Position numbers and translations under genes: made by a program
Notes under the pieces: generated by a model
What the model saw: the letters and a program-made list of their open reading frames with translations, nothing else
Told to the model about the DNA's origin: nothing
Database searches by the model: none
Shown: positions 5,417 to 39,611 of the stretch, piece after piece
Position numbering within the stretch: the stretch's first letter is position 1
How the letters are laid out: each line of letters opens with the position of its first letter
Virus record (IMG/VR): IMGVR_UViG_2651869755_000015
Location: 1-42,292 of that record
Length of the DNA stretch: 42,292 bases
Strand: one strand, 5' to 3'
Origin: a virus
Taxonomy: Duplodnaviria > Heunggongvirae > Uroviricota > Caudoviricetes

Positions 5417-5497
5417 AACTTGTTACCTCGGTCTGTTATCGTTGAGGTAATAATTATGCGTATCTGGTTTGATGTCAATAGATATGAGTTAAAAAAA

Positions 5498-5512
5498 TTA
5501 CCCGTTAGGTAA
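5498..5512. promoter_or_regulatory. Operator-like palindrome TTACCCGTTAGGTAA (OL-equivalent)
   Basis: Perfect TTACC-N5-GGTAA dyad between the repressor gene end and the leftward early operon. Confidence 0.55.
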
Positions 5513-5569: not shown

Positions 5570-6154
5570 TTATTGTTTGCTTTTTTCGTTCTGGTTGATG
5601 ACAAATTCAATGTAACTTTCGATCTTTGCCTTCTCTGTTTCAGGTAACAATGCGTAGCGCGAGCGGTCATAGTTGATAGTTGCAGGGTCATGCGGATGAA
5701 TCAGTAGTTCATATCCGTGACGCCCGAATGCAGATGCAACATTCTCCAGGGTGGAAATGGAAACGCTGACCTCATTGTTTAACAGGCGGCTGATTGTCAC
5801 CTGGGCGACGCCGGATGCGCGGTGAAGTTTTCCCTGAGTTGAAAGGTCGCGGCTTTCGCTCATCCAGCGTTCCAGGTTGTGAGCCGCCAGCTGACCAATG
5901 TCGCTTGGGCCGACAGGCTGAAAACCTTCCTGAGAAAGCGAGCGATCGATATCAAGCCAGTTACGGGGTTTATTGGCGGCAGCTTCAATTTTTCGCGCAA
6001 CCTGGTCGCCGATAACCTTCTTGCCAAGAGCCCAGCGGTTTACCAGATTTGCCTGAGTTCCAAGTTTTTCAGCCATCCGCGTCTGAACACCATTGAATTC
6101 ACGGTCGATCAAGTCGTTGAGATTTTGCCTGCGGACGTCCTGGATACTTTTCAT
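5570..6154 (-). CDS. Prophage repressor, tandem HTH (XRE-type), no obvious peptidase S24 domain
   Basis: 194 aa; two HTH-like segments (VQTRMAEKLGTQANLVNRW; VAQVTISRLLNNEVSVSISTLENVASAF); divergent from a Cro-like gene with three operators between them; no Ala-Gly/Ser-Lys autocleavage signature seen. Confidence 0.65.
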   Translation of the reverse strand: MKSIQDVRRQNLNDLIDREFNGVQTRMAEKLGTQANLVNRWALGKKVIGDQVARKIEAAANKPRNWLDIDRSLSQEGFQPVGPSDIGQLAAHNLERWMSESRDLSTQGKLHRASGVAQVTISRLLNNEVSVSISTLENVASAFGRHGYELLIHPHDPATINYDRSRYALLPETEKAKIESYIEFVINQNEKSKQ

Positions 6155-6209: not shown

Positions 6210-6272
6210 TTACCCAACAGGTAAATGCACCTCATGGGTAACTATCCTTGATTTTTGTTACCTTATAGGTGA
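6210..6272. promoter_or_regulatory. Divergent immunity promoter region with three operator-like dyads (OR-equivalent)
   Basis: TTACCCAACAGGTAA (6210-6224), partial CACCTCATGGGTAA (about 6229-6242), TTACCTTATAGGTGA (6258-6272) between the repressor and cro-like start codons. Confidence 0.6.
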
Positions 6273-6594: not shown

Positions 6595-6609
6595 GTACCT
6601 CAAAGGTAA
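6595..6609. promoter_or_regulatory. Operator-like dyad GTACCTCAAAGGTAA (one mismatch)
   Basis: Near-perfect copy of the TTACC-N5-GGTAA dyad upstream of the gene at 6690. Confidence 0.4.
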
Positions 6610-8540: not shown

Positions 8541-8617
8541 TTACCTTAGAGGTAATAAAATATTCTAAAATCTATTGATTTCGTGTCTTATGTGGTTTTT
8601 AATTACCTAAGGGGTAA
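8541..8617. promoter_or_regulatory. Two operator-like dyads upstream of the 8621 gene
   Basis: TTACCTTAGAGGTAA (8541-8555) and TTACCTAAGGGGTAA (8603-8617); CTTATGTGGTTTTT motif between them. Confidence 0.55.
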
Positions 8618-12470: not shown

Positions 12471-12503
12471 TTACCACAACGGTAACTATTACCACGGTGG
12501 TTA
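12471..12503. promoter_or_regulatory. Operator-like dyads immediately upstream of terS
   Basis: TTACCACAACGGTAA (12471-12485) and a degenerate copy TTACCACGGTGGTTA (12489-12503) within ACTATTACCAC direct repeats. Confidence 0.5.
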
Positions 12504-15202: not shown

Positions 15203-15279
15203 TGGCGTGGCATGCAGGATTCGAACCTGCGACCAACCGCTTAGAAGGCGGTTGCTCTGTCCAACTGAGCTAATGCCAC
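15203..15279 (-). tRNA. tRNA-Arg (anticodon UCU)
   Basis: Minus-strand 77-nt sequence GTGGCATTAGCTCAGTTGGACAGAGCAACCGCCTTCTAAGCGGTTGGTCGCAGGTTCGAATCCTGCATGCCACGCCA folds as a cloverleaf (7-bp acceptor stem, GTTCGAATC T-loop, anticodon loop CTTCTAA, 3' CCA). Confidence 0.85.
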
Positions 15280-15601: not shown

Positions 15602-15616
15602 TTACCTGAAAGGTAA
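15602..15616. promoter_or_regulatory. Operator-like dyad TTACCTGAAAGGTAA upstream of the structural operon
   Basis: Perfect dyad, identical to the site at 35706-35720; followed by CATATGTGGTTAAATTGGTAAT. Confidence 0.55.
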
Positions 15617-31447: not shown

Positions 31448-32008
31448 ATGAAGGCAATTATATTTTTTGTTTCAATATTGATGTCTGCATTTTCTTTTGC
31501 AGGGCAAAATGTTAAATGCGAACTTCAATACTTTGGAGATAGCGATAAATTTAAGGTAACTCAGTTTTCTTTTATGGGGATTCCATCTGATTCATACCTT
31601 TATACCTGTGCCGACTGTGGAGGCATCCAGATAAACGTGTTCCCATCTATTCAGACTGTTGCCTCCTACTCATTTGAAAACAACATTGATTTCGAAAGGA
31701 AAATCAATGCTGAATACAACAGAAAAGACATAGCTAAACTTGAGATGGAAAACGTTACTCAAGGCGGGAGAATAAAATATTCAATCACCGATACTGGTTT
31801 GGCAGAGTTTTACCCAGAGGGCAAAAAGATAAGCTACCTCTACTTTTTAGCCAAGCAACAAAATGGTAAAGAACAAGTAGGTTATTCAGGATTTGTTACC
31901 TCTAACGGGGATAAGTCATGCTCAATTATTGCGACATATCCAGGAAAAGAAATTTCTTTTCTGGGAAGTAAATCTTTAAGCTACTTTATGAATCATATAT
32001 CAATGTAG
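31448..32008 (+). CDS. AT-rich secreted protein (signal peptide), accessory
   Basis: N-terminal MKAIIFFVSILMSAFSFAGQ signal-peptide-like; visibly AT-rich codon usage; followed by palindrome copy 3. Confidence 0.55.
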   Translation: MKAIIFFVSILMSAFSFAGQNVKCELQYFGDSDKFKVTQFSFMGIPSDSYLYTCADCGGIQINVFPSIQTVASYSFENNIDFERKINAEYNRKDIAKLEMENVTQGGRIKYSITDTGLAEFYPEGKKISYLYFLAKQQNGKEQVGYSGFVTSNGDKSCSIIATYPGKEISFLGSKSLSYFMNHISM

Positions 32009-32123: not shown

Positions 32124-32627
32124 TTATACTATTGAGTTAAATGATATCTTGTCCTTAATATCATTAAGTTTGCCATATATCTTTTTTGCATAAAAATCAG
32201 CTTCCTCAATAAACTTCGACTTCTCATTATCAGGCATATTTTTGAAGGTATGTGCACATGTATATTGAGAGTAGTAATTGTGAAACTTGTTATACATATT
32301 ATTGAGTTCTTGTAAGTCTTTTTTATACTCAGGAAGGTATATGTTTATTAGCATTTCCATCGTTTGCAACGGATTGACTTTTGATGTGTCAAATTTACTA
32401 TCAGAGTGGTAACTGGCATTGTTAACAAAATTGAGAATAGCCATTTTGTTTGAAGCTATGACTTTTTCAGTAAGTATGCAATTTGTGAATAATTGCTCAC
32501 GTTTATCTCTTAATATTTTTTCGCGCTCTAATTTTATGCTGTTTTTGTATCCTTGCCTTGCACTTATGTAAGTAGAAACTATAGCAATAACTGCACCTAT
32601 CAATGCGCCTAAGATAGTATTATCCAT
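32124..32627 (-). CDS. AT-rich membrane-anchored protein (1 predicted TM), accessory
   Basis: ATG at 32627 after AGGTGG; N-terminal hydrophobic helix ILGALIGAVIAIVSTYI; Lys/Asn/Tyr-rich soluble domain. Confidence 0.5.
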   Translation of the reverse strand: MDNTILGALIGAVIAIVSTYISARQGYKNSIKLEREKILRDKREQLFTNCILTEKVIASNKMAILNFVNNASYHSDSKFDTSKVNPLQTMEMLINIYLPEYKKDLQELNNMYNKFHNYYSQYTCAHTFKNMPDNEKSKFIEEADFYAKKIYGKLNDIKDKISFNSIV

Positions 32628-32652
32628 ATAAGCCACCTAAACTGCGTAAAAA

Positions 32653-33516
32653 TTATTTCCTGCCACTTCTGTAGTATATGTTGCGACCATTTTTGGTCAC
32701 ATTAACAACATGACCCTTTGTTTCTACTTTGTTATTGGTTGCCTTATATACTTCAAAGTCAAACCATGATATATGACTTATTTCGTCTATAGATACCATA
32801 ATTTCTAGACCTTGAACTTTCTTTTTGCTTATCCCTTTTATCGCAGCACTGCGCTTAATTTGGATTTCACCTGGGTAAGCGTTTGTAAATGTAACAGATA
32901 AATTTTCTTTGTTTCTGTACCCTGACATTAAAGGAACAAAAGATATGTGTTGGTGTGGCCCTTGATTTTCCGTTGGCTCACCAGAACCATTTATTATTCC
33001 AACGTATACTTTATTTGATGATAAAGTAATTAACATTGGTTTCTTAGGATCTGATTCGATTGCATCAAGCAATAGCAAATCTAAAGAACCCTGGGAGTAC
33101 GTTTTTCGCAATACTCTAGCTTTCATTGCCTCTGATATTTTGTCATAAATATCACGTTTATAAAAACAACCTAAAAGAAGATCTTTTAGCCAAACAAAAG
33201 ATACATAACACAAAGAGAAGCAAATTGATGTGACTGACAGAAGAAGTAGCCACATGTAAATTCTATCTGTTTCTGGTTTTGACGTTACATTAAAAGTTTC
33301 CACCATGTCGTGAACTAGGTGAAAATCAGGATATTTACATTTTATAAATGCGGCAATTATTACTGAAGCAACAAGGCAATATGTACCTAATGCAGCTACT
33401 TTCATATAAAGAAGCTGGCCTTCATGTCGGTATAAACGGAAATAATGATACTGGTTAGCGGTTATCATAATATAACCACTAACCAGAATGGGGATAATTA
33501 GAAGAGCTAACAACAC
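32653..33516 (-). CDS. AT-rich multi-pass membrane protein, accessory
   Basis: 287 aa; about 3 hydrophobic helices in the first ~110 residues then a soluble domain; GTG start overlapping the upstream stop (TAGTG). Confidence 0.55.
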   Translation of the reverse strand: MLLALLIIPILVSGYIMITANQYHYFRLYRHEGQLLYMKVAALGTYCLVASVIIAAFIKCKYPDFHLVHDMVETFNVTSKPETDRIYMWLLLLSVTSICFSLCYVSFVWLKDLLLGCFYKRDIYDKISEAMKARVLRKTYSQGSLDLLLLDAIESDPKKPMLITLSSNKVYVGIINGSGEPTENQGPHQHISFVPLMSGYRNKENLSVTFTNAYPGEIQIKRSAAIKGISKKKVQGLEIMVSIDEISHISWFDFEVYKATNNKVETKGHVVNVTKNGRNIYYRSGRK

Positions 33517-33725
33517 TATTTCCTTACAGTGGCAAGATCCTGTTTAACAATTGCAGCAGCGAGACGACGCATCTCTTTAACCTCAGGAAGCTCAGAAATT
33601 TGCTGTGATGAGATATATACTCCACCACGCTTGTTAACCTGCGCTGACGCCGGAACTTCTGCATTTTTTGCCTGAGGGCTGGGTGCATTATCCCTCGTTT
33701 TTGTACGAGCGAACCAAAATCCCAT
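33516..33725 (-). CDS. Hypothetical small protein (69 aa), first gene of the accessory operon
   Basis: Normal-GC ORF translationally coupled to the membrane protein; operator dyad upstream. Confidence 0.4.
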   Translation of the reverse strand: MGFWFARTKTRDNAPSPQAKNAEVPASAQVNKRGGVYISSQQISELPEVKEMRRLAAAIVKQDLATVRK

Positions 33726-33751: not shown

Positions 33752-33766
33752 TTACCTTTAGGGTAA
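33752..33766. promoter_or_regulatory. Operator-like dyad TTACCTTTAGGGTAA
   Basis: Perfect dyad in the 113-bp spacer upstream of the accessory operon; preceded by ACACATGGTT. Confidence 0.55.
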
Positions 33767-33838
33767 TAGTACGCTATTCACTCCCAGTCTGCAATCTGTA
33801 CAGAATTATTTAAAGGCACATCCCTGTGCCGCCGCCCG

Positions 33839-34573
33839 TCAGAAGAACCCTGCCTTGTCGTTGATGTACTCCGCGTGGGTCTGGATATCACGCAGGCATT
33901 TGCTCACACCGACGATGTAGCAGAACATGGTGGTCAGCTCCGCCGCCGCGCCCGATACGTCGTGCCCGTCTTCCTGTAACTGGTTCAGCAGATTCATCAG
34001 CAGTGAGTTCTCCGTCAGGCCGAGAACACCAGACGGCGAATGAATCAGGCTGCGGTAGCCGGGCTTCAGTGGGGCACTGTATTCTTTTTTGTCTTCCAGC
34101 TTGATCGCCTCCATAATGGCGGGCATGAATTTTTCAATTACCTGAGTGGCCTTTGATAAATCAGCTCCACCTGAGAGACGAACATCTCCACTGACATTTG
34201 CGGGTTTTCTGTCGAAGTAGCAATCTTCCAGTTTTTCGAAGACCTCCCACGCTTTTTCAGTCTCAAGAATTTTCGCATGTCGTGCTGCACCGCGAGCGGT
34301 CCATAAGAAAAGATGACTTACTTTTGGTGCAATATTAAGCAAACCTCTTTGAGAGGACTCGTTCTTAAATGCTCGTAATTCTTCGCCTATCAGCTTGAAA
34401 CAATGTTTTCCCTCAATGAATCGATCTGCATTTCGTTGATAGTTTTGACGAATCAGTTTGGGTTCTGTGTCATACAAATCAGCAAGCATTTCTGTAGTCA
34501 TTACAGGGATGTTGCAATGAGTTGTTATCGGCAACTTATCAATAGCTATATTACGCATTTTCATTGCCTCCAT
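33839..34573 (-). CDS. Antirepressor-like protein (ORF6N/Ant N-terminal domain plus C-terminal domain)
   Basis: N-terminal VMTTEMLADLYDTEPKLIRQNYQRNADRFIEGKHCFKL matches the ORF6N/Ant pattern; C-terminal ~70 aa homologous to the 35372-35629 product. Start may be 34558 or 34564. Confidence 0.65.
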   Translation of the reverse strand: MEAMKMRNIAIDKLPITTHCNIPVMTTEMLADLYDTEPKLIRQNYQRNADRFIEGKHCFKLIGEELRAFKNESSQRGLLNIAPKVSHLFLWTARGAARHAKILETEKAWEVFEKLEDCYFDRKPANVSGDVRLSGGADLSKATQVIEKFMPAIMEAIKLEDKKEYSAPLKPGYRSLIHSPSGVLGLTENSLLMNLLNQLQEDGHDVSGAAAELTTMFCYIVGVSKCLRDIQTHAEYINDKAGFF

Positions 34574-35057
34574 CTTTCACGACGAAATAGCAATTATCTT
34601 TATAATCTAACTGGATGAACTTTATGTTTTCAGGGAGTTTTACAGAAAGAGTTTTTGCACAAGCAAAACCAAAATCTGCGCCAGAAGCATCCATATACCT
34701 TAATAATTGTTTTAATGCTGAAGGAGAAAAAGTATCTACCTTCACCTCAACAGGGTAACCATCTTTTGTTTTTAGGTCTGGTTGACCTGGTCCACCAAGT
34801 ATTTCAGCGTTAAGGTATTTTGCTATTTCTGGATAAGCGTTGTATTCAGAGCGTAGTTTTGCCTTGTTATCGACTGCTAGTTGCATAAGATGATCAAACA
34901 AATTGGTATCTAAATCTGCCCCTTCATCCCACATTCTATTTCTACAGCTAATCAATTCACTGACCAGTGGTGCACTTTCTTGCCTTAGCATAAGAAGGAG
35001 TGGAGAATTAGAAATTAACCAATACAGATCGTCGTTTGAGATTTTTTGGCCTGGCAT
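34551..35057 (-). CDS. Hypothetical protein (168 aa) co-transcribed with antirepressor
   Basis: ORF with stop overlapping the ant start region. Confidence 0.45.
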   Translation of the reverse strand: MPGQKISNDDLYWLISNSPLLLMLRQESAPLVSELISCRNRMWDEGADLDTNLFDHLMQLAVDNKAKLRSEYNAYPEIAKYLNAEILGGPGQPDLKTKDGYPVEVKVDTFSPSALKQLLRYMDASGADFGFACAKTLSVKLPENIKFIQLDYKDNCYFVVKDGGNENA

Positions 35058-35211
35058 AGCGATACCTCTACTAGTAAGTTACCCACCACCGCAACGCCAA
35101 TTGCTGGTGGTGAACTGGACAAGGTTGGCGTACCGGCCTAGTAGGTACCGGCGCACCTTTCGGTGCCCCTGCCCAGCCCACCATAATTCGGATATGACTG
35201 TGCTATACGCA

Positions 35212-35235
35212 TAAAAAAACCACGTCTGGCGTGGT
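35212..35235 (-). terminator. Rho-independent terminator downstream of small antirepressor gene
   Basis: Minus strand ACCACGCCAGACGTGGT followed by TTTTTTT. Confidence 0.55.
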
Positions 35236-35325
35236 ATGCGCCTACTAGTAATCCGGGACGCCAATCCCGGCACTGGATTTTGCCAGTGCCTGATTACTAT
35301 GGCACAAGAGGAGTGCGATGTAAAT

Positions 35326-35340
35326 TTACCGCAAAGGTAA
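35326..35340. promoter_or_regulatory. Operator-like dyad TTACCGCAAAGGTAA
   Basis: Perfect dyad in the structured noncoding spacer 35058-35371. Confidence 0.5.
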
Positions 35341-35371
35341 ATATAAGCACTCCACTTGGTAATTGCAAACC

Positions 35372-35629
35372 TTATCTGGTTTGCTTTCGTAATTGTTCGG
35401 CACAATAGTCGAGATGTGTTTGCAGATCCTGCATAGACATCTGTGAGCTGGTGACGTAGTTAATCAGTGCAGTCAGTTCGGCAAGTGGGCCATCGACATT
35501 AAATCCATCCTTATCGAGATCCCGGAGTAATTTCATCAAGTGCGATCCCTCCACCAGTGACCTGACGCCTCCCGGCGTGTGAATCCTTTCGGTAAATCCG
35601 TCTTCCAGTGGATAGTGATACTGCTGCAT
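35372..35629 (-). CDS. Small antirepressor-like protein (homolog of Ant C-terminal domain)
   Basis: ATG at 35629 after GGAGAAG (track uses TTG at 35647); IHTPGGVRSLVEGSHLMKLLRDLDKDGFNVDGPLAELTALINYV aligns with IHSPSGVLGLTENSLLMNLLNQLQEDGHDVSGAAAELTTMFCYI of the 244-aa Ant; LexA box 22 bp upstream. Confidence 0.5.
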   Translation of the reverse strand: MQQYHYPLEDGFTERIHTPGGVRSLVEGSHLMKLLRDLDKDGFNVDGPLAELTALINYVTSSQMSMQDLQTHLDYCAEQLRKQTR

Positions 35630-35650: not shown

Positions 35651-35666
35651 CTGTATATTTATACAG
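35651..35666. promoter_or_regulatory. LexA (SOS) box CTGTATATTTATACAG
   Basis: AACTGTATATTTATACAGTA matches the E. coli LexA consensus TACTGTATATATATACAGTA at 18 of 20 positions, with perfect CTGT-N8-ACAG. Confidence 0.7.
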
Positions 35667-35705: not shown

Positions 35706-35720
35706 TTACCTGAAAGGTAA
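35706..35720. promoter_or_regulatory. Operator-like dyad TTACCTGAAAGGTAA upstream of tailspike
   Basis: Identical to 15602-15616; followed by CCATATGTGGTTTTTCAGGTAAT. Confidence 0.55.
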
Positions 35721-39206: not shown

Positions 39207-39611
39207 ATGTCAGCTCAACTAACCAGTGAAACTTTAAATCAGTGGCTTAGCATGAGTTCTTTGGCGGCAGTGATAGCAGGAGTTCCTCCTGAGGTTGCTT
39301 TGGGGTCTTTGGCTGGGGCGGTGATTTTTGTTACCTCTGCGGTAGAGTATCCCATTCGTCGTCGCGTGCTCTTGTCGATGCTTAGCTTTCTCTGCGGACT
39401 TCTATTCTACAAACCAGCAGCATCAATTCTTATCGGCATAGCCAGCCTGATCCCTACAATCACACAGGATTCTTTCGAGAAAGGGATTGTTTTCTCTGCC
39501 GGTGCATTTGTGTCAGCAATCGTCGCTGTGCGAATTGGGATCTGGCTCTATCACCGTTCCGATAATCCACGCGAGTTAATTCCGGGGAGAAAAGACGATG
39601 GTAACTCATGA
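39207..39611 (+). CDS. Multi-pass membrane protein (holin/antiholin candidate)
   Basis: About 4 hydrophobic segments; first gene of the lysis cluster; start uncertain (GTG 39198 or ATG 39207). Confidence 0.4.
   Translation: MSAQLTSETLNQWLSMSSLAAVIAGVPPEVALGSLAGAVIFVTSAVEYPIRRRVLLSMLSFLCGLLFYKPAASILIGIASLIPTITQDSFEKGIVFSAGAFVSAIVAVRIGIWLYHRSDNPRELIPGRKDDGNS

Follow-up and report, generated by a model that had tools for sequence, protein, structure and literature searches.

We analysed an antirepressor region on the minus strand of a stretch of 42,292 nucleotides (nt), referred to here as the window (IMG/VR record IMGVR_UViG_2651869755_000015), which is a Uetakevirus (epsilon15/phiV10-like) prophage of Escherichia coli. 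An earlier reading of the letters alone (the sequence-only reading) had placed three open reading frames (ORFs) there, at 33839-34573 (244 amino acids, aa), 34551-35057 (168 aa) and 35372-35629 (85 aa), and all three were found as described. They encode, respectively, a long antirepressor in which an ORF6N domain is fused to a C-terminal Ant-type domain, a protein designated here orf168, and a small antirepressor, Ant. The region is ~95% identical to phiV10-like E. coli phages and is present in some form in 534 of 5426 complete E. coli genomes (~10%), and the window is collinear with Salmonella phage SPC32H from the integrase gene onward.

Two genes sharing the Ant domain and their presumed target

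The small antirepressor gene (35372..35629, minus strand) is an orthologue of SPC32H Ant, epsilon15 gp19 and phiV10 p24; its product is 88% identical to the SPC32H protein annotated as 'ant: anti-repressor protein' and matches, over residues 2-84, chain E ('Anti-repressor protein') of PDB 5D50 (E 4e-47). The sequence-only reading had proposed that the C-terminus of the ORF6N protein is paralogous to this 85-aa protein and had suggested a pairwise alignment as a check. The similarity is significant: BLASTP gives an ungapped alignment between the long protein (residues 163-236) and the short one (residues 2-75), with 31/74 identities (42%; E 6e-20). Both proteins also match PHROG 450 (residues 161-242 of the long protein, 5e-36; residues 2-85 of the short protein, 9e-48) and the 5D50 structure, in which residues 158-234 of the long protein align with Ant residues 3-79 of 86 (chain E, E 5e-14). 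Since this span covers Ant 3-79, the C-terminus of the long protein (~33857-34087, minus strand) represents a complete copy of the Ant fold. The two forms constitute separate clades, with a median identity of 80% within the small form, 69% within the long form and 37% between them, and these clades are old.

The remainder of the long protein contains an ORF6N domain (Pfam PF10543; ~34268-34528, minus strand; residues 16-102, 67.8 bits against a cut-off of 27.8), which also gave a match, a weak one, to the PADLOC candidate PDC-S05. Pfam contains no match to the long protein beyond ORF6N, and neither the Ant domain nor orf168 has a family in Pfam, NCBIfam or PADLOC. Although the ORF is open from 34573, as the 244-aa length given by the sequence-only reading implies, the ATG at 34558 is most likely the start of the gene (33839..34558, minus strand; 239 aa), since it sits 8 nt after a GGAGG, overlaps the stop codon of orf168 as ATGcgTAA, and is used by RefSeq and by every gene call in relatives. 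Just 3' of the long ant stop, a GC-rich hairpin with a T/A-rich tail (GGCACA-GGGA-TGTGCC; 33814..33829, minus strand), read from the sequence and conserved with phage TL-2011b, is the probable end of the operon; the terminator scan did not report it.

The lysogeny repressor Rep (5570..6154, minus strand), with two helix-turn-helix (HTH) regions, is the presumed target of both Ant domains. It is 43% identical to SPC32H Rep and matches PDB 5D50_A, 'Repressor' (E 3.5e-42); no S24 self-cleavage domain was found in it, HTH_3 being its sole Pfam match, so that, as in SPC32H, a non-cleavable cognate Rep is encoded in the same phage as the small ant. In a set of 50,697 phage records, only 34 phages, all epsilon15-like, have the Ant domain, whether free or fused, and because of this confinement the likely target of both copies is the group's own Rep.

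The SPC32H Ant/Rep pair (PDB 5D50, 5D4Z), reportedly described by Kim and Ryu in 2013 and by Kim et al. in 2016, resembles the small-gene part of the window closely. The small gene is orthologous and lies at the equivalent place, transcribed divergently from the tail spike gene; upstream of it are the same LexA box and the same operator-like repeat; and the homologous Rep also lacks a cleavage domain. SPC32H differs in having only the small-ant module, with no second Ant domain, no orf168 and neither of the RNAs described below. According to three publications, SPC32H Ant is made after LexA inactivation and binds Rep directly; as a tetramer it engages two dimers of Rep and disrupts the Rep tetramer that binds DNA, the contact being the C-terminal domain of Rep (PMC7380047, PMC9638917, PMC9986798).

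The small gene had also been called LexA-regulated, and this is supported by an exact CTGT-N8-ACAG box (CTGTATATTTATACAG, 35651..35666), 22 nt upstream of its ATG, which is found at the same place in SPC32H, phiV10, ZX5 and TL-2011b. The box agrees at 18 of 20 positions with the 20-nt LexA consensus, TACTGTATATATATACAGTA. Two other CTGT-N8-ACAG matches in the window (15072 and 19614) are within the range of shuffled sequences (mean 0.52, largest 3).

We also noticed an operator-like inverted repeat, TTACCTGAAAGGTAA (35706..35720), upstream of the small ant promoter, which is conserved in an alignment of four phages. A second such repeat, TTACCGCAAAGGTAA (35326..35340), abuts the -35 hexamer of the promoter of the downstream module, and there, among related cassettes, the half-sites are conserved and the spacer is variable. 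The motif TTACC-N5-GGTAA, allowing one mismatch at most, occurs at 15 sites in the window against 0.71 expected (5436-5450, 5498-5512, 6210-6224, 6258-6272, 6595-6609, 8541-8555, 8603-8617, 12471-12485, 12489-12503, 15602-15616, 31810-31824, 33752-33766, 35326-35340, 35706-35720 and 39331-39345). The rep gene has such sites on both sides, the rep/cro-like intergenic region is filled with them, and they are also found ahead of several operons and of both antirepressor promoters; SPC32H has the motif at equivalent positions, even though its Rep is only 43% identical. The motif is probably the operator of Rep (or Cro).

IsrK, C4 and their complementary sites

The 314-nt gap between small ant and orf168, on which the sequence-only reading had not commented, holds two RNA elements: an IsrK-like small RNA (sRNA; 35213..35289, minus strand; Rfam RF01394, 68.1 bits, gathering score 50) and a C4-type antisense RNA (35103..35188, minus strand; Rfam RF01695, 76.7 bits, gathering score 45), the latter at full length (model positions 1-87). 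A predicted promoter, P_isrK (35296..35324, minus strand), is composed of TTTACA, a 17-nt spacer and CATAGT, with an upstream TG and with 7 nt between its -10 hexamer and the 5' end of IsrK. The terminator scan identified an intrinsic terminator of IsrK (35219-35235 plus a U-run, minus strand), and none between the stop of the small gene and P_isrK. Among the phiV10-like relatives examined, which come from E. coli, Klebsiella, Enterobacter and Salmonella, none lacks either RNA, and all the matches exceed the Rfam gathering scores. SPC32H has neither; its solitary ant gene has the tail spike gene on one side and a membrane-protein gene on the other. Since the second operator-like repeat abuts the -35 hexamer of P_isrK, Rep could repress or activate the synthesis of C4 and IsrK.

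IMG/VR was scanned with a conserved word of IsrK, which gave 135 sites (not de-replicated) and 126 cassettes with a parsable C4. IsrK followed by an antirepressor-type operon on the same strand is the layout of the window and of ~120 cassettes. P_isrK is nearly invariant across the cassettes compared for it. Small ant is missing from the 700 nt upstream of 41 cassettes that have 600 nt or more of sequence on that side. Read-through of the IsrK terminator has been demonstrated in the Salmonella prophage Gifsy-1 (PMC4825925), and by analogy it would reach the antirepressor operon here.

A 37-codon frame that starts from a conserved AUG inside C4 was rejected as a conserved coding feature here, its length ranging from 3 to 37 codons among cassettes. 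It is the equivalent of Gifsy-1 orf45 and of the ZX5 'ash family protein', whose coding sequence (MW722083.1, 1779-1892) overlaps the C4 RNA (1821-1906); given the variable length of the equivalent frame, this annotation is probably an artefact of RNA conservation.

In the minimum free energy (MFE) fold of C4, two segments are available for pairing: the loop of the second hairpin, b' (UACCUACUAGG, 35137-35147), is unpaired, and the junction a' (ACGCCAA, 35125-35131) is single-stranded. Exact complements of both are present twice on the same transcript. In IsrK, a1 (UUGGCGU, 35258-35264) is complementary to a' and b1 (ACUAGUAGG, 35241-35249) to b', forming what may be a target mimic; in the orf168 5' untranslated region (UTR), a2 (UUGGCGU, 35094-35100) is complementary to a' and b2 (ACUAGUAGAGGUA, 35063-35075) to b', and b2 covers the GAGG Shine-Dalgarno sequence, which lies 8 nt before the orf168 ATG. 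Pairing in the window extends over 7/7 nt between a' and both a1 and a2, and over 7-9 nt between b' and both b1 and b2. In the whole 42-kb window the heptamer CTAGTAG is found at three places, all of them within the IsrK, C4 and UTR elements.

The three sites change together. In phiV10 they read CUAAAAGG / CCUUUUAG / CUAAAAGG, and in a Klebsiella phage CUACAAAGG / CCUUUGUAG / CUACAAAGG, together with UUGGUCU / AGACCAA / UUGGUCU. Among the 126 cassettes, the pairing of b' reaches 8 nt or more with IsrK in 125 and 7 nt or more with the UTR in 124, and the 7/7-nt pairing of a' is found in 124 cassettes for IsrK and in 125 for the UTR, against a mean pairing of 4.5-6.1 nt for non-cognate combinations. 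These figures come from element-wise complementarity with non-cognate controls, which was used instead of full-length RNAduplex predictions of C4 against its targets; the latter ignore intramolecular structure and were uninformative. At least 9 b types and 3 a types are found in 19 (b', a') combinations, and because of these 19 combinations the a and b types can be said to assort independently. There is thus strong comparative evidence that C4 pairs with both the IsrK and the UTR sites. What this pairing blocks may be the initiation of translation, the step affected in P1, or the elongation of transcription, as in P4. In all E. coli Uetakeviruses of the phage collection the identity of Rep is 99% or more, and their C4 types differ.

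In the MFE fold of the read-through RNA (35040-35289, minus strand), the b1 region of IsrK pairs with the b2/ribosome-binding region (z = -4.1), a pairing that recalls the translationally inactive 'structure A' of Gifsy-1; b types other than that of the window are not palindromic.

The sequence-only reading had suggested that two paralogous effector domains under different promoters could provide dual-input control, or act on different repressors and cross-induce co-resident prophages. Such an arrangement, with two independently promoted antirepressors serving two transcriptional inputs, or one of them directed to repressors of unrelated prophages, seems unlikely to us as a full account. The divergence of the domains to 42% identity and into two old clades is what it would lead one to expect, as is the predicted promoter of the second module, and prophage cross-induction by trans-acting antirepressors is documented in Salmonella (PMC3121763, PMC7380047). 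Nevertheless, the restriction of the domain to 34 epsilon15-like phages points to the group's Rep, and the small Ant remains at 88% identity where the corresponding Reps are down to 43%; Rep divergence is therefore tolerated by the Ant domain and does not call for a second copy. Moreover, the RNA elements, which are the strongest comparative signal, are left out of this explanation. Two inputs do seem to exist, but they are not simply two promoters: the genes are in tandem with no terminator between them, and the long one seems to be under an RNA lock, C4 being complementary to the ribosome-binding site of orf168. As for different repressors, the domain's distribution makes cross-induction of unrelated prophages less likely, whereas action on resident prophages of the group that have another C4 type is plausible.

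Cassette variation and the orf168 protein

Downstream of C4, the cassettes carry different genes. A Bro-N domain fused to the Ant domain is present in ~100 cassettes and an AntA domain fused to it in 10; orf168 followed by the ORF6N-Ant fusion is found in 7 complete cassettes, and a Bro-N domain with an unrelated C-terminal domain in 3 cassettes of other phage types. In this survey orf168 accompanied only the ORF6N variant (7/7 complete cassettes). DNA identity between the window and ZX5 or TL-2011b sets in at ~34090, precisely where the Ant domain has its N-terminal boundary, and the GC content is 0.56 in the Ant domain of the long ant against 0.36-0.38 in orf168 and the ORF6N part. The Ant domain is thus the constant and phage-group-specific effector, and the N-terminal domains, with or without the nuclease, are exchangeable. 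We considered that the C-terminal domain of the long Ant might come from lambdoid 'AntA/AntB' proteins of other prophage types and rejected this origin, since AntA-Ant proteins occupy the same IsrK-C4 cassettes and the domain is absent from non-Uetakevirus phage records.

Phage ZX5 provides an experimental counterpart. Its ORF4, a Bro-N version, has a C-terminal domain 96% identical to that of the window's long Ant, and its Rep is 99.5% identical to that of the window; over-expression of ORF4 reduced lysogens from 10^9 to 10^6, i.e., 1000-fold (PMC9782041). In phiV10 (DQ126339.2, 2512-3191), the long antirepressor is split within the Ant domain by a frameshift (p23 and p22), the translated p23 ending in ...LLMNRTTGMMYQARRRS; either phiV10 has no functional long Ant or the record contains a sequencing error. 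Some related phage contigs in IMG/VR contain two IsrK-C4-antirepressor cassettes ~3 kb apart, in opposite orientation, which differ in C4 type and N-domain; counting the small Ant, three Ant domains would be present in one genome.

It is very improbable, in our view, that the cassette is a redundant passenger, i.e., a mobile IsrK-C4-ant unit that recombined into the ant locus and drifts towards loss with no role in the life cycle. SPC32H and epsilon15 do manage with the small gene alone, the phiV10 long gene is frameshifted, and the cassette is a GC mosaic with freely swapped N-domains. However, the long form is intact in nearly all of the ~120 cassettes, 51 distinct C-terminal sequences share the same invariant residues, the promoter and the operator-like site are conserved, and co-varying RNA partners require continued selection.

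The first cistron of the putatively RNA-controlled operon, orf168 (34551..35057, minus strand), had been described as encoding a protein of unknown function co-transcribed with the longer gene. Co-expression is supported, and a function can now be predicted, that of a PD-(D/E)xK (NucS/Cas4-like) nuclease. In a word-indexed search the close homologues all came from Enterobacteriaceae (11 clusters), and those whose context was examined always lie between C4 and an ORF6N-Ant gene; the start/stop overlap and the synteny are invariant in Enterobacter, Klebsiella and Salmonella. An exhaustive profile search retrieved 309 relatives. In 44 aligned relatives, down to 22% identity, E71, D94, E104-x-K106 and Q117-xxx-Y121 are invariant, which corresponds to the E ... 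D ... E-x-K signature with the Q-x-x-x-Y of the RecB/Cas4 branch. An AlphaFold2 (AF2) model built from 9 close homologues reached a predicted local distance difference test (pLDDT) score of 47 and was not used; the prediction was redone with 44 diverse relatives from the profile search, and orf168 has the restriction-endonuclease-like alpha-beta-beta-beta-alpha-beta core fold. orf168 is, then, a predicted nuclease-fold protein with intact active-site residues.

Distant members of the orf168 family adjoin antirepressor-type genes in four further unrelated contexts: upstream of an ORF6N gene, downstream of an Arc and a Rha gene, upstream of a Rha/ORF6C gene and upstream of a Bro-N gene. One member of the family is fused to a Rha domain. 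The orf168 family and an antirepressor-type gene look like a recurrent two-gene module.

This association raises an alternative, which we consider improbable as a general account, in which the long protein is mainly part of a two-part DNA-targeting module: the orf168 nuclease and the DNA-binding ORF6N domain would serve, e.g., to exclude competitors, take over the host or generate DNA damage, and the Ant-type domain would be mainly a tetramerisation scaffold or a tether to Rep-bound DNA. The genes found beside orf168 relatives, the Rha fusion, the exclusive pairing of orf168 with the ORF6N variant and the invariance of its catalytic residues are in line with such a role, as is the tetrameric state of SPC32H Ant. 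In contrast, most cassettes (~100 with Bro-N, 10 with AntA) have no orf168 and yet retain the Ant domain, from which it follows that the Ant domain is the constant part and the nuclease an add-on. The over-expressed Bro-N version acts as an antirepressor (PMC9782041), and the sharp recombination junction at the domain boundary fits a self-contained effector. A nuclease-partner role of the long protein is possible for the ORF6N variant and would leave the majority of cassettes unexplained.

Two other features of the window were noted. Three further minus-strand ORFs lie 3' of the long ant (32124-33725), in a block of very low GC content (0.32-0.35), and encode proteins of 69 aa (PHROG 5739), 287 aa (PHROG 3630, hydrophobic N-terminus) and 170 aa (hydrophobic N-terminus), with no match in Pfam, NCBIfam or PADLOC. 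An operator-like repeat (33752-33766) precedes the first of them, and relatives hold different cargo at this position, e.g., a YafO-family toxin; the block looks like a variable moron slot. A tRNA gene (15206-15279, minus strand; 73 bits) lies in a segment that aligns with the part of SPC32H bearing an annotated tRNA-Arg (2788-2861), and for this reason it is taken as phage-encoded and not as an attachment site.

A candidate anti-immunity region and its precedents

Taking these observations together, we regard it as fairly probable that the locus is an anti-immunity region composed of two modules that share one effector domain: an Ant made in the SOS response and an ORF6N-Ant fusion locked by C4. 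The first module would be the SOS sensor arm. By orthology to SPC32H, the small Ant would be repressed by host LexA and produced upon DNA damage, and would then bind the C-terminal domain of the non-cleavable Rep and break the DNA-binding Rep tetramer. The second module begins 83 nt downstream of small ant with its own conserved promoter; its first product would be IsrK, ending at a leaky terminator, and read-through would yield C4, then orf168 and then the translationally coupled ORF6N-Ant fusion. The two single-stranded segments of C4 would pair with the orf168 5' UTR and Shine-Dalgarno sequence. In the lysogen P_isrK would be active, IsrK and C4 would accumulate, and orf168 and the long Ant would be transcribed and remain untranslated. 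IsrK, carrying both target sequences (a1 and b1), could act as a decoy for C4, which would explain the activation of translation by IsrK in Gifsy-1. The lock would open if the cognate C4 is missing or titrated, i.e., in a fresh infection, in superinfection of a lysogen with another C4, or with excess IsrK, and the long Ant, once made, would neutralise Rep through its Ant domain.

In our view the main use of the long Ant is probably to superinfect, or compete with, lysogens of sister phages. There may be a further use as a second induction route, since Gifsy-1 IsrK responds to stationary phase and low Mg2+ (PMC4825925).

Several points weigh against this two-module mechanism. The small-form and long-form Ant domains are only 37% identical (median), and shared Rep binding is not guaranteed. 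The homologous RNA of P4 acts through transcription termination and not through a translation block, which makes the blocked step uncertain. In the specificity type of the window the b core, ACUAGU, is palindromic, and IsrK could pair with the ribosome-binding region in cis. A scan with consensus promoters gave no convincing sigma-70 promoter for the small gene, and for this reason its LexA control rests on the box and on SPC32H. The phiV10 frameshift would make the module dispensable for that phage. For Gifsy-1, the authors invoke alternative mRNA structures and activation by IsrK, not repression by a C4-like RNA, and over-production of the C4-like RNA gave no relief of toxicity (PMC4825925).

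A more elaborate version, which we hold doubtful, would wire the two paralogues in series through the RNA. Because no terminator precedes that of IsrK, SOS transcripts of ant would end at the IsrK terminator and carry the a1/b1 decoy; LexA cleavage would thus cause a flood of target mimic, C4 would be titrated, and the nuclease and the second antirepressor would be translated, an RNA feed-forward that would make induction irreversible. The 19 a/b combinations would be barcodes on one common Rep, so that the barcodes, and not Rep, would set the heteroimmunity groups of E. coli Uetakeviruses, and the nuclease might add DNA damage and carry the SOS signal to other prophages.

The two-module reading finds a close parallel in the immI region of phages P1 and P7, which consists of the c4 antisense RNA, icd and ant1/2 (Citron and Schuster, 1990, cited in PMC8201110). 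P1 and P7 have a common primary repressor and are heteroimmune through c4. In both cases a C4-family RNA and its target are on one transcript, complementary elements are present both upstream and downstream, the downstream element falls on the ribosome-binding site of the first cistron, which in turn overlaps the antirepressor gene, and the specificity types diverge with the primary repressor unchanged. The near identity of Rep (at least 99%) together with differing C4 types in E. coli Uetakeviruses would reproduce the P1/P7 heteroimmunity pattern. There are also differences: here the first cistron encodes the 168-aa nuclease-fold protein, where P1 has the small Icd peptide; the antirepressor is from a different family, with ORF6N and an SPC32H-type Ant domain; and the upstream element is a discrete terminated sRNA, IsrK, with a LexA-controlled paralogue directly upstream. 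The locus may therefore be said to work like immI by analogy, but we do not classify it as a member of immI.

The isrK-orf45-anrP locus of Gifsy-1 (Hershko-Shalev et al., 2016; PMC4825925) offers a second parallel, with IsrK and its leaky terminator followed by a processed ~80-nt RNA and by an upstream ORF translationally coupled to an antirepressor-like gene, orf45 being in the position of orf168. Read-through of IsrK, the processed ~80-nt RNA, activation of the antirepressor by IsrK in trans and translational coupling were shown there by experiment (PMC4825925). Gifsy phages also have separate LexA-controlled antirepressors (PMC3121763). Unlike the present phage, Gifsy-1 is lambdoid, its locus is in the late region, and its antirepressor has a different C-terminal domain (no Gifsy match in the phage records); the orf45-like frame inside C4 is not conserved in the present cassettes, and no domain is known to be shared by the two Gifsy-1 antirepressors.

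The exchange of N-terminal domains brings the long protein close to the phage regulators with KilA-N, Bro-N, ORF6N, Rha and AntA domains, whose modular architecture with swapped C-terminal domains is said to have been recognised by Iyer, Koonin and Aravind in 2002. Here too one C-terminal effector is combined with three unrelated N-domains (Bro-N, AntA and ORF6N) at the same locus; the difference is that this C-terminal domain has a known partner, a solved structure and a free-standing gene in the same genome. The ZX5 ORF4 'anti-repressor' has the same locus, a nearly identical Rep and C-terminal domain, and an effect on lysogeny when over-expressed, but its N-domain is Bro-N, orf168 is missing and the C4 type is different; the paper describing it does not mention the small Ant, LexA or the RNAs (PMC9782041).

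All the parts have precedents, in the SPC32H Ant/Rep pair, P1 c4, Gifsy-1 IsrK and the Bro-N/ORF6N regulators, and it is their combination that is new. In the literature searched we found no account of an Ant domain shared by a tandem LexA-controlled gene and a C4-locked fusion, of RNA-specificity diversification on a constant Rep, or of a nuclease as first cistron.

These results connect a solved antirepressor domain with the large and poorly understood class of 'Bro-N/ORF6N/AntA antirepressors', and indicate that the C-terminal domain of this type would be the repressor-specific part, exchanged at a sharp recombination junction. They suggest a simple reading of the Gifsy-1 IsrK data, in which IsrK would be a target mimic for the C4-like RNA, and reveal a family of small PD-(D/E)xK nucleases that seems to be paired time and again with antirepressor-type genes. 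In addition, the at least 19 RNA specificity types on a constant repressor, represented by phiV10, ZX5, TL-2011b and the present prophage, constitute a natural series in which the evolution of heteroimmunity would be testable.

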